A stretch of 64,000 bases of DNA, from assembly GCA_025060975.1 (NCBI GenBank), contig JANZKA010000001.1, positions 28,607 to 92,606 on the forward strand. Direction: 5' to 3'. This document shows positions 9,009 through 35,966 of the stretch, in pieces. Within the stretch, counting starts at the first letter, position 1. Each line of letters opens with the position of its first letter. The stretch comes from Candidatus Culexarchaeum nevadense. GTDB taxonomy: Archaea; Thermoproteota; Methanomethylicia; Culexarchaeales; Culexarchaeaceae. The position numbers and the translations under genes were made by a program. The notes under the pieces are model-generated. The model was not told the origin of the DNA and ran no database searches. It saw nothing but the letters and a program-made list of their open reading frames with translations.

Positions 9009-9467
9009 TCAAAATAATTGCAAACAAACAATAATCTTTCCATCAACATTTGAAATATAAACAAATAGGAATTCACGTGACAAATTAACGTTAGAATTTA
9101 CATAACACACATCAATCAAGTATGGAAGACTCAACTTAAACTCACCTTGATCACAACATAATATCAAAGAATTCTGAAATATGGAAAGTCTATATCCAAT
9201 AAATCTAGTTGGAACAGATAATTTAATGCAAATACTGGAATTCAAACCTAAAATTCTGCAAATTTCAACTCCGTAAACTATGGACTCCTTAATACTATAC
9301 ATGAAAGAATGATAGACTCTATCATCATTAAGAATATTGAAATAAAAACCACTCATGGACATTAAAAGTAACAATATAGAAAGGATTAAGCCAAAATTGA
9401 GTATAGAGTTGGAAATGACGTTTCTCATATTTATCCACCAATCACATTGACCGATATTATAATACAA
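9009..9467 (-). CDS. Small membrane/pilin-like protein (last gene of the filament operon)
   Basis: N-terminal hydrophobic helix (ISNSILNFGLILSILLLLMS), beta-rich remainder. A likely internal start at MRNVIS would remove the overlap with the upstream gene. Confidence 0.3.
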   Translation of the reverse strand: MYYNIGQCDWWINMRNVISNSILNFGLILSILLLLMSMSGFYFNILNDDRVYHSFMYSIKESIVYGVEICRILGLNSSICIKLSVPTRFIGYRLSIFQNSLILCCDQGEFKLSLPYLIDVCYVNSNVNLSREFLFVYISNVDGKIIVCLQLF

Positions 9468-10105
9468 TTAAGTATCAATGGATTGACTCTACTTGAATTA
9501 AAAGACCAAATAAATGAGCATGTTGGACTATACAATTGCATATATGAGATTTTGGGGTTAGTAGGGCTATAGAACCTCTTTACAATATTAATGTATGGAA
9601 AGAAAGAATATTTCCCACATGATATCTTCAATGAACTATTAATATTGAACAATACAGCCCCAATCAATACTGAGTTACCATTAAAAACTATTCTCGGATG
9701 AATACTAAGGATCAACATACTCCCATTTGCTATTATCGAATAAGAGAAGTAAGTCCTATTACCTTCTTCAATTATTACATTCCCGTATGGATATAAGGAG
9801 CTGCGATAAACATACCTCAAGTTAATGGAGAAAGAAGACAACAGAGTTTCGTTATCAAAATTTATAATCTGGAAGCCGTTAATGTAAAACTCCAATACAC
9901 CATACTTTAAAGAAAAGGTGTGTACCACCATTTTACCAGATTCAATACCATCAACAAGCTTATAGAAAAATGATTTTACATCATTAATTTCAGCGAGCAT
10001 TAACACGTAGGTATTGTAGGAAGTATAAAACTGTAAGCAAACCGAACCAACTAATAGTATTAGCCCAACCAGAATAACTGATGAAGGTATCTCCGTAGAT
10101 GTCAT
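9431..10105 (-). CDS. Pilin-like/membrane-anchored protein (no canonical class III motif)
   Basis: N-terminal hydrophobic segment SSVILVGLILLVGSV. 224 aa. Start is 3 nt after the stop of the preceding gene. N-x-S/T sequons. Confidence 0.3.
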   Translation of the reverse strand: MTSTEIPSSVILVGLILLVGSVCLQFYTSYNTYVLMLAEINDVKSFFYKLVDGIESGKMVVHTFSLKYGVLEFYINGFQIINFDNETLLSSFSINLRYVYRSSLYPYGNVIIEEGNRTYFSYSIIANGSMLILSIHPRIVFNGNSVLIGAVLFNINSSLKISCGKYSFFPYINIVKRFYSPTNPKISYMQLYSPTCSFIWSFNSSRVNPLILNCIIISVNVIGG

Positions 10106-10776
10106 ATGGGCATCACATCCACAGAAATAACCTCAAAAACCAATATAACAGGACCACTTGATGTAATAATCGTTGAATAATGATCATTACTAGAAATTAG
10201 TGATATTTTAAGCTGACCAGCACACTCAAACGTGTAAATAGACTTAAATGAATCACTAACTCTCAAAACAAAGTTTCCACTGATGATACCAGAACTTTTC
10301 AAAACCATTAATCTCAAATAGATTCTGGAACCTAAATTATACACTGAAAGTGCTGGTATTAGATGTATATGATCACCATGCCCATATATTGAAAAACAAG
10401 TACCATTAAGTTGAATGGGTTGATCATAGTATATATTCGGAGAAGAAGCATAAACCTGTATGCTTAAAATTGACGATTTAAAATTCCCTAAGCATATATC
10501 GTTAACGATGATTGTTATATTGCAACAATCATCCAATTTAATAATGTAATGTGGATTGAATATCATAATTGAATCATCGATGAAATATAGTTTATCAGCC
10601 TCTAACCTCACATATCTCAAGAAGTCCACTGCATTATCAGACCTTAAACCACATTCCAAATTCCTCAAGTACATCATTCCATATTGAAGGCAAATGAAAG
10701 ATAGTGAGATAAAAACCATGAACATAATCACATTAGATAAAATATTGGAAATACCTCTAGAATTTAAATTGCCCAA
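10102..10776 (-). CDS. Class III signal peptide (prepilin-like) protein
   Basis: N-terminus MGNLNSRG|ISNILSNVIMFMVFISL: a short charged leader, then RG, then a hydrophobic helix, as in archaeal PibD substrates. 224 aa. Confidence 0.45.
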   Translation of the reverse strand: MGNLNSRGISNILSNVIMFMVFISLSFICLQYGMMYLRNLECGLRSDNAVDFLRYVRLEADKLYFIDDSIMIFNPHYIIKLDDCCNITIIVNDICLGNFKSSILSIQVYASSPNIYYDQPIQLNGTCFSIYGHGDHIHLIPALSVYNLGSRIYLRLMVLKSSGIISGNFVLRVSDSFKSIYTFECAGQLKISLISSNDHYSTIITSSGPVILVFEVISVDVMPI

Positions 10777-11422
10777 TGCATTTCACCCCTCTCCAATCAA
10801 TTACACTAAATATAAAAGTATGCACATTCAACGGGATTATAAAACGAATAACGTAATGCCCATTCATTAAACTCTTAGAATCTGGATAAAAAGTGAAAGT
10901 ACTCCCATTATAGATGTATGAAACCATGAATGTTGGCGGTTTAAGTAGAGCTTCAGAATCACCGAAAACCTCAACTACCATCTCAACATCATTAAATGTT
11001 GGAACATACGAATTTGAAGTTGTTATATTAACTATTTTAAAGCCTAAACAACAATTATAACTAAACGTATACCTACACCTATATTTGAAATCATATACTT
11101 GTAACGTGACTGAGGCTCCAACATACCCATCTTTTAAAATAACAGTATATGATGACAATTCAACTATTAATGGGTAAACATTCATAATGTCATGTAAATT
11201 TAGATTTAAACGATCAGTGAATTCTCCACCATTAATGCGATGCACCAATGCATCGCATATCAACCTTTTAAATATCAAATTTAAAGCTTGAATATAGCTA
11301 GATGGAACATCAATGTCTATTCTGTAATATGGGGTTAGATAAATTAATTGATAAATTAAGGAGATGTATAATACTGCAAACAGTATTAATATTTGTCCTC
11401 TACACCCAAACTTGCAGAACAA
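10757..11422 (-). CDS. Class III signal peptide (prepilin-like) protein
   Basis: N-terminus MFCKFGCRG|QILILFAVLYISLIYQLIYL. 221 aa. Confidence 0.4.
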   Translation of the reverse strand: MFCKFGCRGQILILFAVLYISLIYQLIYLTPYYRIDIDVPSSYIQALNLIFKRLICDALVHRINGGEFTDRLNLNLHDIMNVYPLIVELSSYTVILKDGYVGASVTLQVYDFKYRCRYTFSYNCCLGFKIVNITTSNSYVPTFNDVEMVVEVFGDSEALLKPPTFMVSYIYNGSTFTFYPDSKSLMNGHYVIRFIIPLNVHTFIFSVIDWRGVKCIGQFKF

Positions 11423-11804
11423 TTATTCTAGTCACCCCCCTCAACTTCAAGACAAATGGTGCACTAACCATGGAATTAAATATCTTGAAATTGGAAATGT
11501 ACGAGAATAATAAGTTATGATTCTCATCATATACTAGTAAGTTGAAGCTCAATTCTTGTGGTATGAGAAGTTTAATGTAATTCACTAATAAATCCCAATC
11601 CCCATTATAGGCGATTACACTTAAATCCCCATTAGAATCAAGTGTGTATAAAATGTTAAATGCTATGGAATGAAGATGGGAATTATCTACGGTATAATCA
11701 TATACTATCATGGGGATTGTTATGGTGGAATACGCTATTATCATCATTGCGATGAGAACTTCAATTATTCTTGAAAAACCACGATAAGCCATATCCACCA
11801 CCAA
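11400..11804 (-). CDS. Type IV pilin-like protein (class III signal peptide)
   Basis: N-terminus MVVDMAYRG|FSRIIEVLIAMMIIAYSTITIPMIVY. 134 aa, a typical pilin size. Confidence 0.5.
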   Translation of the reverse strand: MVVDMAYRGFSRIIEVLIAMMIIAYSTITIPMIVYDYTVDNSHLHSIAFNILYTLDSNGDLSVIAYNGDWDLLVNYIKLLIPQELSFNLLVYDENHNLLFSYISNFKIFNSMVSAPFVLKLRGVTRIIVLQVWV

Positions 11805-11813
11805 TCTACTAAA

Positions 11814-13121
11814 TCATAAATTGTTAAGTCCCGGTAAACCAGAATTACACATGCAAGTACCACTATTCTTAACCCTAATTTTACATAGCAATGAATGGTA
11901 TGCATCAACTTTGAGAAAACTATAAGTAGAATCACCTTCATTTAGAAAGCCTATTGAAACATTCAATTCTGGAATAAAGGCAACGTAAAATACTCCATTA
12001 AATGTGTAGATCATAACGTAAGGAGGACTTACATTTGGCATCGTATTCACATTAATACTCTTATCAAACCAGAGCAACCAAACTTTATCAACATTAAAAC
12101 ATGGTATATATGAGCTATGATGAGACGATGACACAATATTGTTTAACTTCAAAATGAAAGGATGAGTCCATCCACCAAGATAGATATACACATTCCCACT
12201 TGAACTTAGTTTCAGAAAGAATCTCACATTACTTCCATGAAATTCCTTCAGTAGGGGTATGTGGAAGGTAAAACTCTTAACACAACTGGAATTGATTGTG
12301 AAGAAGAAATCGGCTAAAACCATAGAATCACTGCAATTAGATCCACAAATTCCAAAAACCATATGGAGACTTCCAAAACCACTGGCAAAAAATGAGAGCT
12401 CTAAGGAGTCATTGGAAATGCTGATTGAATTTTTAAAAACTCTACTGTAAAACGAGGTTCCATTATCATTAAGTAATATGACTGAAGAGGCTCCAAAAAT
12501 ACTATCAACAATATAGTATCCACCACCAAGATTGGACAAATAGAATTGCGTTGGTCGTGCAATCATGTAACTCATTTGGAAATCTCCATATAAACCGATA
12601 CCAAACAATTGCCCATGCCTAACAAATACAACCACCAATTGAGGCTTGTACTTCAATGAAATACTTCCAAAACCATTATCCAAGTTTATATAGTAATAAT
12701 CGGTTAAGGTTCCATTACTAAATATATAAACGAAGGCTTCTCTACCACAAGATTTCATATTAACGATATCGAGGGATCTTATAATCACAGACTCACCAGT
12801 AAAGTACACTTTAACATCTAGGGATGGTGATATTTGGATGGAGAATACGTGATCTTCCATGTTAATGGTCTTCTTCAAATACTCATAGTCTAAGTAATAG
12901 CCGAAAACTTGTGAGTAAATGGGGGATAAAGCTTGAAGAGTGAATGGATCAATCCTCCCCTCAGGAGCTATTGAGTATAGTAGGCGATTGACTATTACAT
13001 CATTAGAGTATGTTGTAAAATGAAAGTATCTTTGTGCAGTGGAACTCAATATGCTTGCACTAGATGATAATAGTAAGAAGATCATGAATCCAGCGAAAAC
13101 ATATTCTACAACTTCTTCCAT
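11814..13121 (-). CDS. Membrane-anchored secreted protein of the filament locus
   Basis: N-terminal hydrophobic segment FAGFMIFLLLSSSASILS. 435 aa, beta-rich, multiple N-x-S/T sequons. No recognisable catalytic motif. Confidence 0.35.
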   Translation of the reverse strand: MEEVVEYVFAGFMIFLLLSSSASILSSTAQRYFHFTTYSNDVIVNRLLYSIAPEGRIDPFTLQALSPIYSQVFGYYLDYEYLKKTINMEDHVFSIQISPSLDVKVYFTGESVIIRSLDIVNMKSCGREAFVYIFSNGTLTDYYYINLDNGFGSISLKYKPQLVVVFVRHGQLFGIGLYGDFQMSYMIARPTQFYLSNLGGGYYIVDSIFGASSVILLNDNGTSFYSRVFKNSISISNDSLELSFFASGFGSLHMVFGICGSNCSDSMVLADFFFTINSSCVKSFTFHIPLLKEFHGSNVRFFLKLSSSGNVYIYLGGWTHPFILKLNNIVSSSHHSSYIPCFNVDKVWLLWFDKSINVNTMPNVSPPYVMIYTFNGVFYVAFIPELNVSIGFLNEGDSTYSFLKVDAYHSLLCKIRVKNSGTCMCNSGLPGLNNL

Positions 13122-16100
13122 GAATAATCACCATCAATCCACAATCCCTCAAAAACTTCATATCCAAATGCGTAAACAGTAAGCACTATTTTATGAATTC
13201 TCCTTGGAAGAGAGAATGTATAGAATTTTATGGATCCATGAGTTAATGTTATGGTGATGGATGATGAGTAGAAGAGTTCATCAAATTCGTCGTAAAACAT
13301 CACATTCAGTGTACAATTGAAATCCATGAAGCTCGATTTTGAAGTTAAAGTGAAATTAGCAAATCTCCCCTCAACATTAACATATAACAGCACACCAATG
13401 TTTTCATTCCAGCATAAATCGCATAGTTCATCTAGTCTGGAAACCCACGTATTACTAATGTCTCTGCAAAGTAACTTGATTGTAAAGTTTTTGTAAAAGG
13501 GTATTCTGAAAGTCATAGAAGCAACTCCATCTTCATCAGTTTTATAATTAAGTTTGGTGATAACAGTATCATTACAATAAACCATTAACAGCAGCTCTAG
13601 ATGTGCTGGATCACCATTGGAATAATAGAATTTAAAGTTGATATTGAAAGATAAATCTTTTACCAAAAATCTTAGGATATCACATTGTATACGTTTAAAT
13701 GGAATAACAACATATGATAAACTTGAATTCGTAGATCTGATAGTGAATGGGGAGTTAACATAGTATACGAAGAACTTAAGTGAATCATTAAAGTTAATGG
13801 GGGGAGCAATAAACTTTGCGTTTCCAAAATCATCAATTGGAGAACTCCTAAAATATCCATATGTGGAGTTCAAGACAAGTTGAAGAGCCCCCCCTCTAAA
13901 CCTTAAACTCTCATTGTTGAGACTCCAAGTTAAATGGAATAATATTTCATTGCAACTATAATCATTATTTACAATATAATACACTTTTAATCCGTCAACA
14001 TAAAATCTATTTCTACCTACAATACGTCCAGAATCATCTGAAAGTAGGATTTCATAGGATCCTAAGGGGCAATTTATACCATTTAAATAAACTATGAGTT
14101 TACATAACCCATCTTCATCAGTTGATACTGGTATGAGTGAAACGTTAAAATCGCCGAAAACGGCATTTGGAAGAATCAACGTGAGATTCCTCAGAGGCTG
14201 ATATTTAATTATAATCCCCATGGCTTCATATGGTAGAAATCTATACTCTGAATACCAATAGCCATACATCCAGTTGACATAATATAATTCGATGGAAGCA
14301 AGTCGCCTAATTTCAATGGAAAATGTGCACGAATCATTATGTGAACTGGAGAATGCATGTAATTTAAAGTTGAATATTCCAGTTAAATTTGATAATGGAA
14401 TTACACGTAACTCAACGATTTCCACAGGATTTGAATCTGATATGTAAACTGGGTTTCTAGAAAAATTATATCTGAAGAAATCCGAGTAGCTTGCATTACA
14501 TAAAACTTCGAGAGAAACATAACCGCTGAACCCATTAACGGAAGTTAAACTAACATAAAACAGTGCATCTTCACCTTCAAGAATAGATATAAATGTTGGA
14601 TATATGGAAACGTTGAAGTATCGCCCTTGCTTAACTTCCAATTTAAATGGATTACTATAAACTATCAACCCATTATGATCAACACCCTTTACTATCAGAT
14701 CATACACTCCCTCAATAGAAGAAGGAGAAGCATAAATTTCGAGGACTACACTTTTTTCATAGGAATCGATGAACAATGGATTAATGGAAAAATTATATAA
14801 ACAGTTTGGAGGATTACCCTCAACACTTAATGTGATTACACCACTATAACCATTAATTGGAGTTAAAGTTACATTGTAGAGTACACGAGACCCTTTAAAG
14901 ACGCTATTAAAAGTTGGGTTAACGGTAATTGAATATGAGGGAGCCACATAACTTTCAACGTTCAGTAATATCTTTCTACTCTGACCATCGGAACCTACGG
15001 CCAAGATTTCAATGAAGCAATCCCCAATATCATAAGATGTGAAGTCTATGTGAAACTGGAATGGAGGAATACCTCTAGTCTCACCCACCACGTTGTAACT
15101 AAGCCAACTTGGGACAGATCCTATTGTAACCTGCACAGGGAGTTCATAGCCATATAGATCGCCAACATATACGTCAATCCCCCTTGCAGAACCCAATGGT
15201 ATTCGAATACAATTATAGGAGGAACTTAAGGAGAAGGATGGTATTGTTAAATTAAAATCCTTTGAAGAAGGAAGATAGCTACTATCCCCTTCAAAAACAA
15301 TTCTTAAAATTCTCTTACCAAATTGTATATCACTTGGGATAACATATAAAAACGTAAAGGAGCCATCAGAATCGGTATGATTCGATGATATATACATGGA
15401 ATCCATATACAAATCGATTTTCGCATTCGAAATACCGTTACCGCGACTATTTATCAAGCGTCCACTTAAATATATTAGGTCTCCAATATACCCTTTAGAT
15501 GCACTTATAGAGCCAACAATGTATGAGTTCTCAAAATAGCCTATAGACAATGTTATTCGTAAACCATAACTCCCACTATAGAAGTCTGCAAAGGAATATG
15601 CGTAATCCTCTAAAGCTCCAGTAGCTATACTTCTAACAACCATTATAACTGAGAAGTCAAGCCTATCACCACTAAAAACATTTAAATCCAGATCTTGATA
15701 AACAGAAACATATTGATCACTAAAAACATATTGATCTTCACCTGAATAATAGAGGGTAAGAGTTTTTGAAGCCAAAGTAACTCTATAATTCATGAAGTCC
15801 ACATAAACCTCAATGCTAGCTTCAGCTGAAAATGTATTAGGGAGACATATGGATTTAACGTATAGTTTACCCATAAGTGTATATTTAATCGATAACTTCT
15901 TGATAACACCACTAAATGGTGAAATAAGGTAACCTTTAAAGGTGAGGGTTAAATCAGCTTCATTCAATAAGGATCCTATATTCTTCGTGGCAGAACATAT
16001 AGCTTTAAGTAAACCTCGATTCTTATCATAACTATAAGTGAAACTTCCAGTACCACAAGTATAGTAGAAAGGTTGAAATTCATTGAATGGTGGAGCAAGG

Positions 16101-16234
16101 GGGTAATATAGGATGCAATTAGAGTTTGGGAGCAAAAGTAACAATAATAGTGAAATCATTAATGGTAGGAGTAGCATCCTTCTTCTTACCATAACCTTGC
16201 ACCACCATAAATTCCAAGGATGCAAATGTAGCAA
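13106..16234 (-). CDS. Large secreted multi-domain surface protein (carboxypeptidase-regulatory-like / Ig-like repeats), putative adhesin
   Basis: 1042 aa. Signal-like segment RRRMLLLPLMISLLLLLLLP; the probable true start is the internal Met near 16192. Motifs GRLINSRGNGISNAKIDLY...TDSDGSFTF and KTDEDGVASMTF resemble prealbumin-like CarboxypepD_reg folds. Internally repeated ~80-aa units (NGYSGVITLSVEGNPP...FSINP / NGFSGYVSLEVL...FSRNP). About 20 N-x-S/T sequons. Confidence 0.5.
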   Translation of the reverse strand: MLHLHPWNLWWCKVMVRRRMLLLPLMISLLLLLLLPNSNCILYYPLAPPFNEFQPFYYTCGTGSFTYSYDKNRGLLKAICSATKNIGSLLNEADLTLTFKGYLISPFSGVIKKLSIKYTLMGKLYVKSICLPNTFSAEASIEVYVDFMNYRVTLASKTLTLYYSGEDQYVFSDQYVSVYQDLDLNVFSGDRLDFSVIMVVRSIATGALEDYAYSFADFYSGSYGLRITLSIGYFENSYIVGSISASKGYIGDLIYLSGRLINSRGNGISNAKIDLYMDSMYISSNHTDSDGSFTFLYVIPSDIQFGKRILRIVFEGDSSYLPSSKDFNLTIPSFSLSSSYNCIRIPLGSARGIDVYVGDLYGYELPVQVTIGSVPSWLSYNVVGETRGIPPFQFHIDFTSYDIGDCFIEILAVGSDGQSRKILLNVESYVAPSYSITVNPTFNSVFKGSRVLYNVTLTPINGYSGVITLSVEGNPPNCLYNFSINPLFIDSYEKSVVLEIYASPSSIEGVYDLIVKGVDHNGLIVYSNPFKLEVKQGRYFNVSIYPTFISILEGEDALFYVSLTSVNGFSGYVSLEVLCNASYSDFFRYNFSRNPVYISDSNPVEIVELRVIPLSNLTGIFNFKLHAFSSSHNDSCTFSIEIRRLASIELYYVNWMYGYWYSEYRFLPYEAMGIIIKYQPLRNLTLILPNAVFGDFNVSLIPVSTDEDGLCKLIVYLNGINCPLGSYEILLSDDSGRIVGRNRFYVDGLKVYYIVNNDYSCNEILFHLTWSLNNESLRFRGGALQLVLNSTYGYFRSSPIDDFGNAKFIAPPINFNDSLKFFVYYVNSPFTIRSTNSSLSYVVIPFKRIQCDILRFLVKDLSFNINFKFYYSNGDPAHLELLLMVYCNDTVITKLNYKTDEDGVASMTFRIPFYKNFTIKLLCRDISNTWVSRLDELCDLCWNENIGVLLYVNVEGRFANFTLTSKSSFMDFNCTLNVMFYDEFDELFYSSSITITLTHGSIKFYTFSLPRRIHKIVLTVYAFGYEVFEGLWIDGDYSWKKL

Positions 16235-17874
16235 GATACCAATGCATGCTTAAAACCTGCAAAGATAGTTCCACCAGAAATTTTCCCTACAAGTATGCCT
16301 ATGAAGAATGAAGTTAAAATTATCATAGAATTTATGGTTGAATTTAACTCAATAATCACACTTTTATCAACATTGAAGAAGATAATCTGACTCGGAATAG
16401 AATATCCAAATTCAAAAAAGCTAAGGAACCCAATTAACTGGTAAGAGACAAATATGAGCATGAGTGAAGAGAAGTATCCCACCAAAATATAGAGTTTCAA
16501 TTCATTTTCAACTCTACGCTTAAATTCATTGTACTCCCAACAGAACTTTGAAAGATGTGAGAAAATTTCAGATCTTCCACCACCAGTAGATACAGCTTCC
16601 CCAAAAAGCCAAAATATCCTCTTGGCAAACCATGAATTAACCCTAGAAATAATATCATTGAATATATCTGATATAGACTTCATGGATGACGTCAAGGAAA
16701 GGTTTATACTACGAATAATATCATCTAAAGCTTTACCATAAGATCTGCTAGAGGCAAGTATTAAAGCATTCTCGACACTTAAACCAACCTTAATATAATC
16801 GGATATATCCCTAATGAATTTTGAAAGACCAGAATCTATGACTCTACATTTAATAACATTGTATTCGTGAAAAATACTTAAAGGAGCCAATAAAACCGTA
16901 GAAGAAATTGTGAAAAGAAGTGGAAAGCTCACACCTAAATTCAAGAGTATAAGTAACGTTATGAAGAAAGAAGGGATCGAGAAGAGCAATACCCGCTTAT
17001 AATTACTAAACCTAAATGGAAATTTCAATTGACTGTAATCGATTATAATGAAGATGGAAAATGCTATTAGTGGAGTGAAAATAAAAGCATAAAGTTTTAG
17101 GAATAACAATGCATTTAATGGATTCATAATCATAAATATGCCAATTAAGCCGAGTGGGAGAAATAGGAATAGTGTTACTATGAGATCGCCAAATACGTTC
17201 ACATCACTAGCGAAATTCTTAAGCTTATTTGAAAACCGCTCACCCAATTTAAGCGTGTAATCCATTAAAGAAGAAGATGGATAACCACCACTCTCAACAG
17301 ACCTAATATATGAATCAAGATAATCCCTGAAATCTTTACATGGATGATTGTAAGCTAAGAACTTAATTGATTGCATGGGATCTTTACTAAAAAACTTATA
17401 ATCAGTAAAGAAGACTTCACTTTCAAACTTAAACCATGGAAAAACGTTTTGTGAAGATAATCTTTCAAACCCTCTAAATAGAGGCACATGAGATAAACTC
17501 AACATACTAAAATAAGTTGATATGAAAGGAAGTTCGGATTCAACACCACTAACACGTAAGGATATTCTAACCCTAGGATAAAAATGAAAAACTAAAAATA
17601 CGAATAATGCACATAAAGGTGGCAATACAAGGAAGAGAAATGAAGAAAACAAAATCAGAAGAAGAATAGATGCAATTGTGGATGCTGGTAAAACTATGAG
17701 TAAAAGGTAGAATAGGAAAATCGAACAGTACCCTTGAGGACTTATCTTTAAACCAGAACGAACTATAATTTCACTTAAATTAAGCTTATGAGAAATAGTA
17801 TTTGCAAAATTACCAAAAAGTCTATATGCTATAGAAATTGGAAAAACTTGAACACTCTTACCTTTCCAAAGCAA
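16186..17874 (-). CDS. FlaJ/TadC/PilC-type polytopic membrane platform protein of a type IV filament system
   Basis: 562 aa. Two hydrophobic blocks, each followed by a cytoplasmic helical domain (a duplicated T2SS-F-like organisation). Immediately downstream of, and overlapping, the secretion ATPase gene. Confidence 0.7.
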   Translation of the reverse strand: MLWKGKSVQVFPISIAYRLFGNFANTISHKLNLSEIIVRSGLKISPQGYCSIFLFYLLLIVLPASTIASILLLILFSSFLFLVLPPLCALFVFLVFHFYPRVRISLRVSGVESELPFISTYFSMLSLSHVPLFRGFERLSSQNVFPWFKFESEVFFTDYKFFSKDPMQSIKFLAYNHPCKDFRDYLDSYIRSVESGGYPSSSLMDYTLKLGERFSNKLKNFASDVNVFGDLIVTLFLFLPLGLIGIFMIMNPLNALLFLKLYAFIFTPLIAFSIFIIIDYSQLKFPFRFSNYKRVLLFSIPSFFITLLILLNLGVSFPLLFTISSTVLLAPLSIFHEYNVIKCRVIDSGLSKFIRDISDYIKVGLSVENALILASSRSYGKALDDIIRSINLSLTSSMKSISDIFNDIISRVNSWFAKRIFWLFGEAVSTGGGRSEIFSHLSKFCWEYNEFKRRVENELKLYILVGYFSSLMLIFVSYQLIGFLSFFEFGYSIPSQIIFFNVDKSVIIELNSTINSMIILTSFFIGILVGKISGGTIFAGFKHALVSCYICILGIYGGARLW

Positions 17875-19441
17875 TCCTAATCACCTCAGACCCCCTTGAA
17901 TAATAGAAAAGTTTAAGATGATCGATGAAATCATCATATTCACGTATACCATGAGCATGTAGATCTTCCAGAAACTGCAACCTAATTTTCAACTCATGTG
18001 AAATATCATTTATCGAAACCCCCTTCTCCTCAGCGATCTGTCTTAGAAGGAAACTTGAAGATAATAGTGAATCAACAGTGGACGGCGCAAAGATATCTCG
18101 GGATGGAACCCACTTGAAAACCTCAATATAATCGTCGGCTGATTTTATCTCATAAATACCAATAACCCTCCTCTTAACACTTCTTGCACCCTCAATCTTC
18201 TTCAATACGATGGCACAATTCATTAGTGGAATATATATTGGGGATACATTCATGGGCGGCGAAGATAAGCGCTTAATAGCGGAAATTATAGAATCAGCAT
18301 GCATCGTACACATACATCCATGCCCTGTAGCTGCAGCTTGAAATAACACATAAGCTTCTTCGCCACGAATTTCTCCAACCACAATATAGTCAGGTCTCTT
18401 ACGCATAGCTACCTTAACTAAATCGAATAGAGTAATCTCAAACTGCTTATCATCCATAAAGTATGCATGCCTAGCTACAAGTGGCTCCCAACCTTTAACT
18501 GGAATTTTAAGCTCAGGAACATCTTCAATGGAATCAACAGACCAATTTGGTTTAAACAATGCACTTAAAGCGGAAAGTAAAGTTGTCTTACCACTCGCAG
18601 TACCTCCAAGTACAAATATGTTCTTTCTATTTTCAATCAACAACCACAAATAGCAAGTCATGAGAGGACTTAAAGTTGAAAAATCATACGTTAAATGCAT
18701 AACGGTATAAGGTTTCTCTCTAAACTTCCTAATACAAATATTAGTGGATTTAGCACTAACTTCTCTCCCATAGCATATTGAAACTCTATGCTTATCAGGT
18801 AATATGGCATCAACTATTGGAAATGCTATTGAGACATGTTTACCACACATATGTGCAAGCTTAGAAGCCAGCGAATTTAATTCATATTCGTTTAAAACAA
18901 TGTTCGTTGTAAGCCAATCCAGATGCCCAAACCTCCTATGCCAAACCATAAATGGGATATTGGGACCTACACACTTAATATCCTCAATTTCCGAATCTTG
19001 AATTAACGGTTCAATATAACCATAACCCAAATCTCTAGCTATATAATATGCAACACGATTCAAACTCAATTCATAAAGATTTTTAAACCCATAATTCTCA
19101 GCCACCCTAAATATTTGCTCATGTATATAATTGAATAAATTAGTACCAGCCTCCAAAGCGGGAGGTATCTTTAATTCAAATCGCAATATCTTAGATAATT
19201 CCCTGTAAACTTTTAATTCCAGATCCATAAGCTCAGGTTCAAATACAATATATAATCCTTCACCATCATCATCTGCAATAACCACATTAACTTGATCATT
19301 ACAAACTTTATATGATGCAAGTATAGTTGCATTTATGGGAACTTTTGATCTAAAAATCTTAAAATCCATAGGATTCTCCAAATACGAAGACCCACGTTTG
19401 AAAAAACGTTTTAAGAACATTATTCGCGCATCCCCTCTCAT
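17858..19441 (-). CDS. Type II/IV secretion system ATPase (FlaI/VirB11/TadA family)
   Basis: Walker A VLGGTASGKTTLLSAL, Walker B/Asp box DYIVVGEIRGEEA, His box TGHGCMCTMHA. 527 aa with an N-terminal domain, as in FlaI. Confidence 0.85.
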   Translation of the reverse strand: MRGDARIMFLKRFFKRGSSYLENPMDFKIFRSKVPINATILASYKVCNDQVNVVIADDDGEGLYIVFEPELMDLELKVYRELSKILRFELKIPPALEAGTNLFNYIHEQIFRVAENYGFKNLYELSLNRVAYYIARDLGYGYIEPLIQDSEIEDIKCVGPNIPFMVWHRRFGHLDWLTTNIVLNEYELNSLASKLAHMCGKHVSIAFPIVDAILPDKHRVSICYGREVSAKSTNICIRKFREKPYTVMHLTYDFSTLSPLMTCYLWLLIENRKNIFVLGGTASGKTTLLSALSALFKPNWSVDSIEDVPELKIPVKGWEPLVARHAYFMDDKQFEITLFDLVKVAMRKRPDYIVVGEIRGEEAYVLFQAAATGHGCMCTMHADSIISAIKRLSSPPMNVSPIYIPLMNCAIVLKKIEGARSVKRRVIGIYEIKSADDYIEVFKWVPSRDIFAPSTVDSLLSSSFLLRQIAEEKGVSINDISHELKIRLQFLEDLHAHGIREYDDFIDHLKLFYYSRGSEVIRIALER

Positions 19442-19464
19442 CCAAAATTAGAGGGATAAACAAC

Positions 19465-19474
19465 ATATTTAAAA
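19465..19474 (-). promoter_or_regulatory. Putative BRE/TATA box for the filament-locus ATPase operon (leaderless transcript)
   Basis: The minus strand reads TTTTAAATAT, centred about 28 nt upstream of the ATG at 19441. Confidence 0.3.
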
Positions 19475-19552
19475 CCAAGATTTCATGCAACATAAACACT
19501 GGATTCTACAACAGCATTTTAATACCAAAAAATATAGCAAAAAGGTGAAAGT

Positions 19553-20554
19553 ATGTTCAAATCCAGTACAAAAGAATTATCAGAAAAGATCGATTGGATG
19601 ATGCAAATACTCAATGAGATAAATGTGAAAATAAATGATAACTCTAGCAGGATAATGAAACTTGAAGCAGAATTAAGAGGTATTCAATTAGATGAAATTG
19701 GTGAAAACATAAAAGCCATTAATGAAGGACTCTACAAAGTCAAAGAAGCAATGAATGAAGCTGGAAAAATGAGAGAGATAATATCTGCATTTAAAAACCT
19801 AAATGTGAAAGGAGAGTTTAAGGAGAATATAGATGAATTAAAGAAGAGCATTGAAGAAGTCATGCAGCAATTGCTACAAATAAAAAGCGAAGTATACTCA
19901 AACATAAAAGCATTAACAGACAAAATAAACAATATACAAACAATACATCAGGAAATCATGAAAAACATTATGAGTATAAAAGATTTAGAAGTAAACGCAT
20001 TAAAAAACATATCCACAATAACCATCATGCAAAAAGAAATAGGAGAAATGGAGGAAAATGTAAGGAAACTATTGGAGCACTACAAGGAAATTATAGATAA
20101 AACAGCATCAACAAAAATTGAATTAAACAAATTAATGAATGATATAGAAAGAAGAGATGAAGAAAGCAAAAGGAAATTGGAAGAAGTAACTATATACGAG
20201 GAAAAAATTAAGAAAAAAGAAGAAGAACTAATTGAAAGAGAGAAACTACTCACACAACTAATAAACGCATTAATTGAAAAAATAAAGGAATATGAAGAGA
20301 TAATGAAACTAACAAACTCAAGAATAACATACTTAAAAATTTTAGAAGAGAAAGGAAGAGAAATTGAAGGGAAAATTAAAGAATTAAAAGAGGAGAAAGA
20401 AAGATTGGAGAAAGAGGTCAATATTTTAATAAGAAGAAGAGATAACCTCGAAGAAGAGATATGCAAATTAAATGATATGAAAACTTGCATGGAGAAGAAT
20501 CTTAAAAGCATAATGGTGACAATGAAAGTTGAGCAATCCAGAACTAACATATAA
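19553..20554 (+). CDS. Coiled-coil protein (E/K-rich, no TM), divergent from the filament operon
   Basis: 333 aa, heptad-like E/K/L/I-rich sequence throughout. GGTGA Shine-Dalgarno-like motif 5 nt upstream of the ATG. Confidence 0.4.
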   Translation: MFKSSTKELSEKIDWMMQILNEINVKINDNSSRIMKLEAELRGIQLDEIGENIKAINEGLYKVKEAMNEAGKMREIISAFKNLNVKGEFKENIDELKKSIEEVMQQLLQIKSEVYSNIKALTDKINNIQTIHQEIMKNIMSIKDLEVNALKNISTITIMQKEIGEMEENVRKLLEHYKEIIDKTASTKIELNKLMNDIERRDEESKRKLEEVTIYEEKIKKKEEELIEREKLLTQLINALIEKIKEYEEIMKLTNSRITYLKILEEKGREIEGKIKELKEEKERLEKEVNILIRRRDNLEEEICKLNDMKTCMEKNLKSIMVTMKVEQSRTNI

Positions 20555-21254
20555 AATTATAAATCACTTGAAGGAAGAGTTATCAAGGGAAATTACGAGG
20601 GGAAGGTTAACATTCACTCCTAAAAGGATAAGCGTAAATATAGGTGAGAGAGGGAATATAAGGAAAATAAACGCTATTCTAAAGATGCTAGAAAGAGAGG
20701 GAGTAATAAAGTTCGATAAAAGAATGAAACGTTACTACATAGACGACGAAAATGCAAAGAAAATTGAAGATTACCTTATGAAAATTGAAGGAGCACTACT
20801 ATTAGAATACCATAAACCCTTAAGCAGCATAGAACCACCCATAAATGTATATAGAATAATTAAGGGGGAAAAGCAAAAGATAGCACAAGCAAAAAGGAAG
20901 AGTATAATGAAACCAATATACTATGTAAATTCCCCTGAGAAATACACGATAATATTCAGGACATATAAGATGCCAGGATTCACAATAAATAAAGGTGATG
21001 AAAAAATTTTCGAAGCATATAAACTAGGGTTCATGAAACCAATAAAAGCAATGTACAATGGAAAAGAAATGCTGATAAGAAGGAAATGGGGTAGAGAGAT
21101 CATAATAATAAGGGAAAATGAGAAAGAAATCGCTAAAATGAGGGGGTATGGAATTGAAAAAGCCATATTTACATATGAAGAAGCGTTAAGTGAAATTAGT
21201 ATACCAATATCAGTAGCATTATTTGCAATAAAACAATTTGATGTAATACTTTAA
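20529..21254 (+). CDS. Hypothetical protein with an N-terminal winged-helix-like segment
   Basis: 241 aa, basic. N-terminal RISVNIGERGNIRKINAILKMLEREGVIKF resembles a wHTH. Overlaps the upstream coiled-coil gene by 26 nt. Confidence 0.35.
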   Translation: MSNPELTYKIINHLKEELSREITRGRLTFTPKRISVNIGERGNIRKINAILKMLEREGVIKFDKRMKRYYIDDENAKKIEDYLMKIEGALLLEYHKPLSSIEPPINVYRIIKGEKQKIAQAKRKSIMKPIYYVNSPEKYTIIFRTYKMPGFTINKGDEKIFEAYKLGFMKPIKAMYNGKEMLIRRKWGREIIIIRENEKEIAKMRGYGIEKAIFTYEEALSEISIPISVALFAIKQFDVIL

Positions 21255-21334
21255 AATAAAAATATATGAAGATTAACTTAACATATGAGACTCCAATAAT
21301 TTATATTCACATAACCCATAAGATGAGGGGTTAA

Positions 21335-21850
21335 ATGAGTAATAGTAAAGGGATAAGTGCAATAATGGTCTCGATAATACTATTAGCAGTATCCATTGGA
21401 ATGGCAGTAGCCTACGCATCAACCATGATGGGATGGTTTGGAAGCGCTATGAACATAGTGAAAATAGATGCATCAGAATCTAAAATAATTCTAAACCCAT
21501 CCACAAATCAAACAAGGATACAAATAGTGCTAAGAAACATGGGAACTACAACAATAAAAGTGAGTAGCATCTCGATAGACACAGAAAAGGGGAAAGCAAT
21601 TATAAACTTTACAAAGAGTGATGTGAAAATATATATGCAAGATCAATCTCCATTTGATGGAGACGTATATGGATCTTCAAAGGATGTAACTATCTCTGAT
21701 AAGTACTTATTAATACCACAAGGTTGCACAGCAACTATATACTTTGAAATAATCTTACAAGAGCATGTATGGAAACTTGGAAACATATATAGGGCATTGG
21801 TATTCTATGATGGAGGAATGTTTGACTTTAAGATAAGCGTAGTGTATTAG
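21335..21850 (+). CDS. Archaeal type IV pilin-like protein (class III signal peptide)
   Basis: N-terminus MSNSKG|ISAIMVSIILLAVSIGMAVAYA, a canonical KG|IS PibD/FlaK-type site, followed by a beta-rich 140-aa domain with N-x-S/T sequons. GAGGGG 6 nt upstream of the ATG. Confidence 0.6.
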   Translation: MSNSKGISAIMVSIILLAVSIGMAVAYASTMMGWFGSAMNIVKIDASESKIILNPSTNQTRIQIVLRNMGTTTIKVSSISIDTEKGKAIINFTKSDVKIYMQDQSPFDGDVYGSSKDVTISDKYLLIPQGCTATIYFEIILQEHVWKLGNIYRALVFYDGGMFDFKISVVY

Positions 21851-21861
21851 AAAGACTAAAA

Positions 21862-22254
21862 TTAAAATTTAATTTTTTTCTCTACTTCAATTTTCCCACA
21901 AATTGTATCTAGAATTTCATTTAGAATTATTTTCAATTCTGTAAGAGATTCGTATATTATCATGTCCCTATGAAATAATTCATTTCCAATGGAATTTGAC
22001 TTCATGAAATCCACAAGCTCAGAAATTGCATTCTTTATATAGGCAACATTAATCTTAACTTCTTCCAATGAACTCTCTATTTTAAACAATTTTGCTAGTA
22101 TCTCTTTATCACCCAAATAAATCCCAAAATAAAAATCCCCCGTGAAATATTTCAAACCTCCACTAGGCGATACAAATTTAAAATTAAAAACATAAAATAT
22201 AACCCAAACATAATTATAAAGAAGTAATGTGGAGAAAGTTGCTCTAATATACAC
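21862..22254 (-). CDS. Hypothetical protein
   Basis: 130-aa ORF. The hydrophobic N-terminus may be spurious; the acidic helical C-terminal half could start at an internal codon. Confidence 0.2.
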   Translation of the reverse strand: MYIRATFSTLLLYNYVWVIFYVFNFKFVSPSGGLKYFTGDFYFGIYLGDKEILAKLFKIESSLEEVKINVAYIKNAISELVDFMKSNSIGNELFHRDMIIYESLTELKIILNEILDTICGKIEVEKKIKF

Positions 22255-24538: not shown

Positions 24539-24617
24539 GGGGCCGTCGTCTAGCTTGGATTAGGATGCCAGCCTGGGGCGCTGGTGGTCCTGGGTTCAAA
24601 TCCCAGCGGCCCCACCA
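24539..24617 (+). tRNA. tRNA-Pro (anticodon GGG), CCA encoded
   Basis: Hand-folded cloverleaf. 7-bp acceptor GGGGCCG/CGGCCCC, D-arm GUCU/GGAU, anticodon stem CCAGC/GCUGG with loop CUGGGGC, T-arm CUGGG-UUCAAAU-CCCAG, discriminator A followed by CCA. Confidence 0.8.
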
Positions 24618-34799: not shown

Positions 34800-35966
34800 A
34801 TGAAAAATAAAAATAAAAAAGAAAAATTTAAAAATATGCAAAATAAAAAAATAAGAAAGTTGATCACAATGTTTGATTGGAGAGAGAGTCCAACCTTCAG
34901 GAGATATTCTAAAGCAATAGATAGAACATGTCAAAAAATAATAAAGACGTTACATGAAACAGGAACAAATAATTTGTCTCTACTAGCAAAGAAAACTGGA
35001 ATGTCGCCTGCACTAGTACATTACTACTATGACAAACTGACGAGTAAAAATATACTGAAACTAAAAGTGAAAATCAACGTAGTGAACATGGGATTACAGC
35101 CTATAGAGGTTATATTTAAAGATGAAGGGGGAGAAAGGGAATCAAACCTAGAATCACATTTAAAAAGCATCGAATATTGGAGAAATCTAGAGAAATACTA
35201 TGTACAAATGGATACTTACTGGCATGCATACTTTAATGTACCAAGAGAAGCCATAAATGAATTTAACAAGTACATAAGAAGTGTTGGGGAGAAAGCTCAT
35301 GTGAAAATAGTATACATGAACACAAACCCAATAGACATTAACCCTAAACCAAATGTAGATTGGTTTAATGATGAAGAAAGAAGATGGGAGTTTAAATGGA
35401 AAGAATGGGTAGATGAAGTAATCTTAAGCAATAAAGAGGTAGATCTAACTGTACCAAAAATGGGAGAATTCATAGTACTAGATAAACTAGATGTATTCAT
35501 AATTCAGAAGCTTGAGGAAGATGCAGAGACATCATTTAAAGAAATGGCAAATGAAATGGGCGTCACCCCACCAACTGTCAGATACCACTATTACAAGCAC
35601 TTAATAAAATATGATATTATTGAGGGTTATGAGGCTGCATTAAAACTATTCCCAGAAAATATATCGATAAATGTCTTAGGACATATTCAATTCACAAATA
35701 GAAAGAATATGAACAATTTTATAGCCTCATTAGAAGGAAAACCCTTCTCCAGTAGGGTATTGGCAAATTTAGAGGATAATAAGGCGACAGTATACTTCTA
35801 CATACCATTTGATCAAATAGTGGAATTAAATAAAGCGCTGATAAGTATAAAAAGAATGGGTATAATAAAGGATTGCATCATAGGATTAATAGATTACAAA
35901 TCAAAAATGGAGAAAAAGTTACCAATGAACTTATATGAGAAGGGGGGTTGGAAGTTAATTTTCTAA
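34800..35966 (+). CDS. Putative transcriptional regulator with two winged-helix domains and a Lys-rich N-terminus
   Basis: HTH-like segments LSLLAKKTGMSPALVHYYYDKLTSKNIL and SFKEMANEMGVTPPTVRYHYYKHLIKYDII. 388 aa. Confidence 0.4.
   Translation: MKNKNKKEKFKNMQNKKIRKLITMFDWRESPTFRRYSKAIDRTCQKIIKTLHETGTNNLSLLAKKTGMSPALVHYYYDKLTSKNILKLKVKINVVNMGLQPIEVIFKDEGGERESNLESHLKSIEYWRNLEKYYVQMDTYWHAYFNVPREAINEFNKYIRSVGEKAHVKIVYMNTNPIDINPKPNVDWFNDEERRWEFKWKEWVDEVILSNKEVDLTVPKMGEFIVLDKLDVFIIQKLEEDAETSFKEMANEMGVTPPTVRYHYYKHLIKYDIIEGYEAALKLFPENISINVLGHIQFTNRKNMNNFIASLEGKPFSSRVLANLEDNKATVYFYIPFDQIVELNKALISIKRMGIIKDCIIGLIDYKSKMEKKLPMNLYEKGGWKLIF

Follow-up and report, generated by a model that had tools for sequence, protein, structure and literature searches.

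The stretch of DNA analysed here (the window) comprises 64,000 nucleotides from Candidatus Culexarchaeum nevadense. An earlier note on this DNA had described three genes on one strand, divergent from a pilus assembly operon, and all three open reading frames (ORFs) were found where they had been placed, on the plus strand and together spanning positions 19553-21850. The first (19553..20554, ATG start) encodes a coiled-coil protein of 333 aa, the second (20529..21254, TTG start) a basic protein of 241 aa, and the third (21335..21850) a type IV prepilin of 171 aa with a class III signal peptide. This rightward triad is the divergent neighbour of the ATPase/platform operon of a type IV pilus (T4P), with a promoter region at 19442..19552 between the two.

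The leftward unit lies on the minus strand. Its ATPase (17858..19441) is a FlaI/BasE-like T4P assembly ATPase, which matches Pfam T2SSE with 101 bits, NCBIfam FlaI with 325 bits (cut-off 550) and BasE with 291 bits, also below the cut-off. Identities of at least 63% within Culexarchaeia, and of at most 46% to the next best matches, place it in a discrete clade. The polytopic, TadC/UpsF-like platform protein (16186..17874) has eight hydrophobic windows and matches Pfam T2SSF in two stretches; its NCBIfam score for UpsF is 149.5 bits against a cut-off of 400, and its identity in relatives is 32-38%. The remainder of the operon (9009..16234), recognised from its ORFs and their N-terminal hydrophobic segments, encodes a secreted or anchored 1042-aa Ig-like-domain protein (13106-16234; weak Ig-like and CarboxypepD_reg matches), a 435-aa protein (11814-13121) and pilin-like proteins at 11400-11804 (RG|FS), 10757-11422 (RG|QI), 10102-10776 (RG|IS), 9431-10105 and 9009-9467. 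Orthologues of the assembly operon occur in unchanged order in relatives. A prepilin peptidase gene was not found among the window ORFs scanned, up to about 51 kb.

The length of the divergent promoter region depends on where the ATPase starts. The 111 bp reported earlier hold if translation begins at M1 (19441), but in relatives the start is the equivalent of M8 (MFLKK..., 19420), with which the spacer becomes 132 bp. A third start, M25, chosen by automatic gene callers, is contradicted by the conservation of residues 4-24. A TATA-like box, ATATTTAAAACC, is located at 19465-19476; read on the minus strand (19474-19465) it gives TTTTAAATAT, the motif that had been proposed for the ATPase operon. 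The core of this candidate promoter box, TATTTAAA, is kept in all seven lineages aligned. A second TATA-like box, TTTTAATA, occupies 19517-19524, about 32 nt upstream of the coiled-coil ATG, and GGTGA is found at 19544-19548 ahead of the same gene. TATTTAAA and TT.(.)ATA are the sole invariant intergenic blocks in the seven-lineage alignment, and both boxes are conserved across both Culexarchaeia families. Most simply, these invariant elements would be TATA boxes. The intergenic alignment contained no conserved palindrome that might serve as an operator, and the conserved 12-mer of the region was not enriched in the window (14 matches versus 11.7 expected). A scan with sigma-70 and intrinsic-terminator models, which are inapplicable to archaea, gave no enrichment either.

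The N-terminus of the prepilin reads MSNSKG|ISAIMVSIILLAVSIG..., in which the leader is followed by ISAIMVSIILLAVSIGMAVAYA after the cleavage site (KG|IS). A class III signal peptide, as defined here by a short charged leader, K or R at position -2, G or A at -1 and a hydrophobic stretch of about 20 residues, is present in the 171-aa protein, with a hydrophobic window from residue 4. Among 18 pilin homologues, the segment from G6 to F35 is almost invariant, while position -2 varies (K, R, N or A). The structural model is a lollipop, with a long hydrophobic N-terminal helix and an Ig-like beta-sandwich, and the PDB structures that it matches best are archaeal T4P pilins and archaellins. The signal peptide and the fold match identify the 171-aa protein as a true type IV prepilin of the archaeal kind. 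The earlier description of it as the best-conserved pilin of the region is borne out: within Culexarchaeaceae it is 62-68% identical, against 40-50% for the three minor pilin-like genes open to comparison, and across relatives its identity falls to 47-50%. The spacer ahead of the gene (21255..21334) carries a TATA-like TTTATATT at 21300-21307 and a Shine-Dalgarno (SD)-like GAGGGGT at 21325-21331. AGGG(T) is found 5-8 nt upstream of the pilin start in 7/7 lineages, with an A/T-rich TATA-like stretch further upstream, pointing to a putative promoter of its own. A run of seven T residues (21873-21879) lies downstream of the stop codon, and a T-run follows the gene in all compared lineages. With its better conservation, its own TATA-like and SD-like motifs and the T-run behind it, this pilin stands out as the likeliest major subunit, a role that the earlier note had suggested and that it probably has.

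The 333-aa protein had been called an E/K-rich coiled coil, and its composition and periodicity agree with this: E and K make up 32% of its residues, proline is absent, and the heptad a/d contrast is 10 standard deviations above that of shuffled sequences (z=10). We read it as an acidic (pI 5.6), cytoplasmic protein; it has neither a transmembrane (TM) segment nor a signal peptide. Its matches in Pfam, NCBIfam and the PDB are generic coiled coils, such as SMC, Rad50 and designed coiled coils; a profile search of the family against PDB sequences likewise returned only designed or generic coiled coils, and the searches of PHROGs, Pfam and NCBIfam gave nothing beyond generic coiled-coil noise. 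A homologue is present at every related locus with 25-56% identity (25-30% in the farthest relatives), with W15, Q18 and the block KEEEL..RE...KI.EYE...N.R..YL being invariant. An SMC/kleisin-like reading of this protein and its winged-helix neighbour was given low weight, as ATPase heads are missing.

The 241-aa gene overlaps the coiled-coil gene, as had been claimed, by 26 nt in this genome and by 26-29 nt in all five resolved loci, which include both Culexarchaeia families. GGTGA or GGGTGA precedes the TTG start by 9-13 nt in four of these five loci. Translational coupling usually shows itself in this way, by an overlap preceded by an internal GGTGA. On our best reading, the two proteins form a translationally coupled cytoplasmic pair, which may also associate physically.

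The 241-aa protein has a pI of 9.7 and no TM segment. The AlphaFold2 (AF2) model folds residues 1-88 (nt 20529-20792) into a winged helix and a linker helix, the former having the topology H1-S1-H2-H3-S2-wing-S3, in agreement with the basic protein and N-terminal winged-helix segment noted before. The closest structural matches of this segment are DNA-binding domains. The other two thirds of the protein, residues 89-241 (nt 20793-21251), a part overlooked in the earlier note, are modelled as a 12-stranded barrel surrounding a C-terminal helix (218-237), with the fold of the Tubby-like superfamily (clan CL0395). Both structure models used here are predictions, and the alignments behind them were shallow (8 and 18 sequences). 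When ten members of the 241-aa family were compared with Pfam at E values up to 1, none matched Tub, LOR, Scramblase or PF21784-6; the family profile found no Tubby or DUF567 chain, and nothing meaningful, among PDB sequences; and the protein itself matched nothing in Pfam, NCBIfam or PHROGs. As these profile matches are absent, the protein, according to its model, is Tubby-like by fold and is not assigned to any of these families.

Conservation is unevenly distributed in the 241-aa protein, whose identity in relatives falls to 38-42%. Five positions are invariant in the winged helix versus about 30 in the barrel, and conservation is highest in the barrel, in the C-terminal helix and in a motif that looks exposed, YHKPL..IEPPI. 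Relatives also keep the putative recognition helix (R/K-K-I-N-A-I-L), and this, together with the high pI, provides indirect support for DNA binding, which we infer. To our knowledge, no function is established for DUF567-type Tubby-like barrels of prokaryotes; a role of this barrel in sensing or membrane association is thus proposed by analogy, on which a tie to the membrane or to lipids may exist.

The triad adjoins the ATPase/platform operon in every relative found, in both families of class Culexarchaeia. A scan of GTDB genomes recovered six loci only, all from one clade, and homologues of the coiled-coil, 241-aa and pilin families were not found outside this clade. When the 241-aa family profile was searched against 1.84 billion representative sequences, it retrieved its own family plus a 1580-aa protein (E=2.6e-4), which was rejected as a beta-repeat artefact because it is a SpaA-repeat surface protein. 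The suggestion that the coiled-coil and winged-helix proteins are specific to this system is supported, in that both are lineage-restricted and always lie beside this T4P locus. A diverged triad was sought at four out-group loci whose ATPases come next in similarity (41-46% identity); they contained no comparable divergent unit and no coiled-coil or 241-aa homologues, and two of the four carry CedA1-like genes at the divergent position. The nearest of these ATPases (41-42% identity) are divergent to CedA1-like and DUF87/HerA-like genes. Co-occurrence of the triad with the ATPase/platform pair is observed in every relative, but a functional link is not separable from plain synteny: the flanking genes for a deacetylase, NAPRTase and the CCA enzyme are in identical order in every relative, and no genome with a broken linkage between triad and T4P was found among them. 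As these housekeeping genes are just as syntenic, adjacency says nothing about function, and the two cytoplasmic proteins can be tied to the pilus only tentatively.

Our preferred account, which as a whole we believe has about an even chance of being correct, is that class Culexarchaeia possesses a T4P locus composed of two divergent transcription units, encoding a major pilin and a coupled cytoplasmic regulatory pair. It builds on what was observed: the structure of the genes, their assigned folds, the restriction to one lineage, and the conservation of the overlap and of the promoter-like boxes. The leftward unit would make the machine, that is, the ATPase, the platform protein, the large Ig-like surface protein and several minor pilins, while the rightward unit (19553-21850) would produce the coiled-coil protein, the coupled winged-helix/Tubby-like protein and the major pilin. 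A prepilin peptidase would cut the pilin at KG|IS, and the mature subunits would polymerise via their almost invariant hydrophobic helix. The coiled-coil and winged-helix/Tubby-like proteins, produced as a stoichiometric pair, would regulate the locus. DNA binding would be the task of the winged helix, with the divergent promoter or the pilin promoter as its most economical target; the barrel might be a sensor or membrane-association module; and the coiled-coil protein could be its partner or scaffold. The pair is probably a regulator with its partner. This reading is weakened by the lower conservation of the winged helix relative to the barrel, by the fact that winged helices also serve as protein-binding modules, and by the lack of a conserved palindromic operator in the intergenic alignment.

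It is also possible, although we consider it rather doubtful, that both proteins belong to the pilus machine itself, as structural or motor-accessory components on the cytoplasmic side that dock on the ATPase or the platform protein, with the winged helix used for protein contacts and the barrel located at the membrane. In archaella, the coiled-coil ArlX and other lineage-specific cytoplasmic proteins dock on the motor. Translational coupling implies a fixed stoichiometry, as expected of such parts, and conservation of the 241-aa protein peaks in the barrel, YHKPL..IEPPI and the C-terminal helix instead of the winged helix. Moreover, the identities retained by the platform protein (32-38%), the coiled-coil protein (25-30%) and the 241-aa protein (38-42%) correspond to rates typical of structural T4P components and not of housekeeping proteins, and subclade-specific cytoplasmic coiled-coil or helical T4P proteins are documented (PMC4858521). 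However, TM segments are absent from both proteins, no resemblance to ArlX, ArlH, ArlCDE or further known accessories could be detected, both genes appear to be transcribed with the pilin and not with the machine, and the winged helix finds its closest matches among DNA-binding domains.

An unlikely alternative is that the coiled-coil and 241-aa genes are unrelated to the pilus and represent an independent pair (e.g., chromatin, DNA-organising or membrane-related) held in a stable gene order. As every relative shows the same collinear gene order over about 20 kb, a stretch to which unrelated housekeeping genes also belong, adjacency carries little weight, and the pilin gene has separate promoter-like elements. 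Nevertheless, every genome has the pair inside the T4P locus, between machine and pilin, the pair occurs in precisely the same lineages as this T4P clade, and the coiled-coil protein lacks ATPase heads and other SMC features.

Comparisons with known systems bear on the kind of pilus involved. The solved pilins of Thermoproteota T4P (Pyrobaculum arsenaticum/calidifontis, Saccharolobus solfataricus, S. acidocaldarius Aap) are 13-18% identical to the 171-aa pilin. The profile of the pilin family reaches the S. acidocaldarius Aap pilin only at E=0.056, a likeness at the level of fold. The locus differs from aap and ups loci in its divergent coiled-coil/winged-helix-Tubby/pilin unit, its 1042-aa Ig-like protein and its at least five pilin-like genes. 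It does not score as an archaellum (FlaI 324.9 of 550 bits; ArlJ 36 of 550), and it contains no KaiC-like (ArlH) or ArlF/G-like gene. In Sulfolobus, the operon of the UV-inducible Ups pilus has the order upsX-upsE-upsF-upsA-upsB. Both that system and this one have a gene of unknown function accompanying the pilus genes, and in NCBIfam our platform protein and pilin match UpsF and UpsA best, but here a single, apparently separately transcribed pilin gene lies in the divergent unit behind two unrelated genes, with no UpsA/UpsB pair behind the platform gene. The UpsA match of the pilin (37.9 bits versus 130) covers residues 5-91 only, mainly the generic N-terminal helix, and UpsF (149.5/400) is also far below its cut-off; the two models are NF046073 and NF046075. 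The pilin is therefore not a member of the Ups family, and its likeness to the Aap filament is one of fold only; membership of either family would have spoken against the earlier interpretation. An Ups-like pilus for aggregation and DNA exchange, in which the winged-helix/Tubby-like protein handles DNA at the membrane and not in transcription, could draw on these best matches, on the CedA1-like and DUF87/HerA-like neighbours of the nearest out-group ATPases and on the joining of a basic DNA-binding-type domain to a fold that associates with membranes in eukaryotes (PMC2639001), but is very improbable given the low scores, the absence of Ced genes among window ORFs up to about 51 kb and of an UpsX match among the NCBIfam matches of the ten locus proteins scanned, and the lack of coiled-coil and 241-aa homologues at the out-group loci. 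We conclude that a well-known machine is present here in a hitherto undescribed, lineage-specific form, and that the locus is not a new kind of system.

The regulatory account has parallels in other archaea. Archaeal T4P and archaellum loci carry lineage-specific cytoplasmic coiled-coil or helical proteins and diverse regulators, some of them membrane-bound; the ArnR family adjoins archaellin genes and arCOG00381 adjoins haloarchaeal pilin genes (PMC4858521). Their logic, a DNA-binding regulator with a membrane device beside its presumed target subunit gene, is that proposed here for the 241-aa protein. However, ArnR and arCOG00381 belong to recognised families and use TM helices, whereas the 241-aa protein has no TM segment and no sequence similarity to them, and any membrane contact would need its barrel. 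The 333-aa protein, a soluble coiled coil confined to one T4P subclade, resembles by description arCOG07564 (haloarchaeal subclade 4F) and arCOG05610 and arCOG07479 (4G), which are soluble coiled-coil proteins, each of one subclade, presumed to be regulatory (PMC4858521). Within the Tubby/phospholipid scramblase/DUF567 (LOR) superfamily, to which the barrel of the 241-aa protein is related by fold without matching any Pfam model, the N-terminal winged-helix fusion does not feature in the descriptions consulted, and the host is an archaeon.

A bolder form of the regulatory account, to which we attach only a slim chance, would see in the 241-aa protein a prokaryotic version of the Tubby logic of eukaryotes. 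As a barrel-tethered transcription factor, it would bind a lipid headgroup or a component of the machine, be released or switched by the state of the membrane or of assembly and then act on the promoters of pilin and machine. The coiled-coil protein would serve as tether or co-sensor.

Culexarchaeia are uncultured thermophilic archaea of hot springs. The main text of the description of this class (PMC9723716) makes no mention of pili, pilins, type IV systems or archaella. Our literature search found no paper tying Methanosuratincola to type IV systems or archaella, although Methanomethylicia papers mentioning pili exist. New in this study is the conservation, in both Culexarchaeia families, of the triad, of its 26-29-nt overlap with the internal GGTGA ahead of it and of the two TATA-like boxes. 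The locus predicts a type IV pilus in Culexarchaeia and names its probable major subunit, providing a target for questions of adhesion and cell-cell contact. The more interesting part is the accessory pair, as it includes an orphan family that fuses a DNA-binding-type winged helix to a Tubby-like barrel. Because this Tubby-like fold has a fixed genomic partner, the coiled-coil protein, and a fixed pilus context, its function is experimentally approachable. If the 241-aa protein were a membrane-coupled regulator, the idea of a membrane-tethered transcription factor in the Tubby-like superfamily would be extended to archaea. Should the bolder form prove true, the protein would be the first fusion of barrel and DNA-binding domain in this superfamily with a defined target, and would represent a new archaeal way of coupling filament assembly to gene expression.

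The three same-strand genes claimed by the earlier note, those for a 333-aa coiled-coil protein (19553-20554, plus strand), a 241-aa protein (20529-21254, plus strand; TTG start, 26-nt overlap with the 333-aa gene) and a 171-aa protein (21335-21850, plus strand; N-terminus MSNSKG|ISAIMVSIILLAVSIG), are present in the ORF table. Divergent from them is a minus-strand operon encoding a T2SSE-type ATPase (17858-19441; 325 bits with NCBIfam FlaI and 291 bits with BasE, neither reaching its cut-off) and a T2SSF-type platform protein (16186-17874; NCBIfam UpsF 149.5 bits versus a cut-off of 400). Directly behind the platform gene is that of a 1042-aa protein (13106-16234, minus strand) that gives weak Ig-like/CarboxypepD_reg matches, has a hydrophobic N-terminal segment and contains 19 cysteines and 19 N-x-S/T sequons; it is 30-56% identical in all relatives and may be a pilus-associated adhesin or S-layer-like component. 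A 435-aa protein (ORF table, minus strand) and five smaller proteins, each with a hydrophobic N-terminal segment, complete this operon, and clear RG| prepilin-type sites are present in three of the five.

The scanned remainder of the window consists of housekeeping genes: MCM, RFC and Hel308 to the left, and deacetylase, NAPRTase, tRNA-Pro, CCA enzyme, EF-2, aRF1 and exosome subunits to the right. The tRNA gene, tRNA-Pro(GGG), occupies 24539-24617 on the plus strand, with the NAPRTase gene on one side and the CCA-enzyme gene on the other, so that a 41-aa ORF there on the opposite strand is probably spurious. Adjoining the aRF1 and EF-2 genes, a 388-aa protein (34800-35966, plus strand) contains winged-helix modules at two separate places, HTH_24 (residues 41-87) and an AsnC-type HTH (227-261), making it an unusual tandem regulator. 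The pilin has the same sequence as a protein of archaeon GBS-70-058, the bin that serves as type material for Ca. Culexarchaeum nevadense, class Culexarchaeia (PMC9723716), and the main text of that description mentions no pili, pilins, type IV systems or archaella.

Homologues of the pilin (25 clusters at no less than 50% identity) and of the 241-aa protein (7 clusters at no less than 37%), where sources are named, all come from Culexarchaeia or "Methanomethylicia/Verstraetearchaeota" MAGs. When 1.84 billion representatives were searched in full with an HMM of the 241-aa family, five family members were recovered, plus one further protein, a SpaA-repeat protein that was rejected as spurious. 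Scanning 185,579 species genomes yielded six loci, including those of Ca. Culexmicrobium cathedralense and C. profundum from the marine family; in every locus with sufficient flank, the ATPase/platform operon is followed by the divergent coiled-coil, 241-aa and pilin genes. Identities to the window in Culexarchaeaceae and Culexmicrobiaceae, respectively, are 70-76% and 63-64% for the ATPase, 62-68% and 47-50% for the pilin, 51-53% and 38-42% for the 241-aa protein, 48-56% and 25-31% for the coiled-coil protein, and 52-61% and 32-38% for the platform protein. The minor pilin-like genes were compared in Culexarchaeaceae only (40-50%), the Culexmicrobiaceae copies lying beyond the fetched flanks. 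The ATPase clade has a sharp boundary, the next best ATPases anywhere being at most 46% identical, and none of four out-group loci encoding such ATPases has a comparable divergent unit.

The divergent spacer, aligned over seven lineages, contains only two conserved blocks: an invariant TATTTAAA, extending to GTATTTAAAACC (19465-19476), and TTTTAATA (19517-19524), about 32 nt upstream of the coiled-coil ATG. The TATA-like TTTTAAATAT that the earlier note proposed for the ATPase operon is the minus strand of the first block. By sequence, the two blocks look like back-to-back archaeal TATA boxes. The ATPase may start at M1 (19441), which lies at a leaderless-type distance from the conserved TATA box, or at M8 (19420, MFLKRFF), at the equivalent of which the relatives begin; the spacer is therefore 111 bp, as previously stated, only with M1, and 132 bp with M8. 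The M25 start of automatic gene callers (503 aa) was rejected because it would cut off residues 4-24, a conserved stretch of the long ORF.

The coiled-coil and 241-aa genes overlap by 26-29 nt in the five loci resolved by script and by 23 nt in a sixth (gene calls). In the window and in two related loci, GGTGA precedes the TTG start by 9-13 nt; a fourth locus has GGGTGA at the equivalent position. This combination is the usual signature of translational coupling and points to production of the two proteins at a constant ratio. Upstream of the pilin start are a TATA-like TTTATATT (21300-21307) and a conserved AGGG(T) motif, and a T-run (21873-21879) comes after the stop, with equivalents in all lineages. 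A short inverted repeat rich in G+C, of the CTGGCTGACAGCCAG type, separates the 241-aa and pilin genes of the marine relatives (L007 ~9990-10000; L011 ~10770-10790; L016 ~10760-10790), where it might act as a hairpin (terminator or attenuator) or as an operator; in terrestrial relatives TTAACTGCACAAA takes its place.

The 171-aa protein is a type IV prepilin of the archaeal kind. In its model (pLDDT 84), an N-terminal helix of 31 residues sits on a sandwich of 11 strands, and the sole Foldseek match with E < 1e-3 was the S. acidocaldarius Aap filament. Against the UpsA model it scored 37.9 bits (cut-off 130), in a match confined to residues 5-91, which places it outside the Ups family. We are dealing, very probably, with a lineage-specific type IV pilus locus of which this protein is one pilin. 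Its conservation, own expression signals and size make it the probable major subunit. Convergent to it, with stops 11 nt apart, is an ORF of about 84 aa (21862-22116, minus strand, within a 130-aa ORF at 21862-22254), helical and with no family match, which is 39-55% identical in Culexarchaeaceae relatives; marine Culexmicrobium loci have a called ORF of 87 aa in the corresponding place. The small ORF may belong to the same module.

The 333-aa protein is a cytoplasmic coiled coil (E+K 32%, no proline, no hydrophobic segment), its a/d heptad contrast exceeding that of shuffled sequence by 10 sd over nearly the whole length; database searches matched only other coiled coils. The basic 241-aa protein (pI 9.7) belongs to a family of which ten members received no assignment from Pfam, NCBIfam or PHROGs. 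A confident AlphaFold2 model built on eight members (pLDDT 87, pTM 0.83) predicts a canonical winged helix (H4-24, E26-29, H31-37, H41-56, wing E61-63/E68-72), a linker helix (73-88), exactly twelve beta-strands (90-216) and a hydrophobic C-terminal helix (218-237). The Tubby/scramblase/DUF567 fold is defined as a barrel of 12 strands that encloses a central hydrophobic helix from the C-terminus (PMC2639001; PMC10584680). The protein is thus, as modeled, a winged helix fused to a Tubby-like barrel, Tubby-like by fold only because no clan sequence profile matched; the previous label of wHTH protein was right but incomplete. The best-conserved segments are the C-terminal helix SIPLSVALFAIKQLDVI and a YHKPL..IEPPI motif at the barrel start.

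For the cytoplasmic pair a regulatory role is favored, which, taken jointly with the reading of the pilin, is an even bet. The winged helix would bind DNA, its activity being governed via the barrel and the coiled-coil partner, in line with a pattern seen repeatedly in archaea, where regulators, some of them bound to the membrane, are encoded next to filament genes (PMC4858521). A version in which a Tubby-style transcription factor tethered to the membrane couples the state of the pilus or membrane to expression is distinctly improbable. The main rival, that the pair is a structural cytoplasmic part of the pilus machine, gains from the barrel being conserved more than the winged helix, and we give it perhaps half the weight of the regulatory reading. 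The pair could also be a neighbor unrelated to the pilus, which seems unlikely; the deacetylase, NAPRTase and CCA-enzyme genes are equally collinear in all these genomes, so adjacency alone does not prove a functional link. An Ups/Ced-like DNA-exchange role is the least probable. Two of the four out-group loci have CedA1-like and DUF87 genes in the divergent position. In L020 (1-9900) and L021 (600-7900), from metagenomic archaea, the nearest out-group ATPase/platform pairs (ATPase 41-42% identical to the window's) are divergent to CedA1-like genes, and L020 additionally carries a DUF87/HerA-like ATPase gene, which places Ced-type DNA-import genes directly beside a type IV pilus locus.

The pilus machinery and the pilin add members to a well-known kind; newness lies in the accessory pair, above all the orphan wHTH-Tubby-like protein, whose genomic context is consistently a pilus locus. 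For specialists in archaeal surface structures the locus is useful, not startling. For those studying the Tubby/scramblase superfamily, the fusion and its pilus context might give a handle on function.
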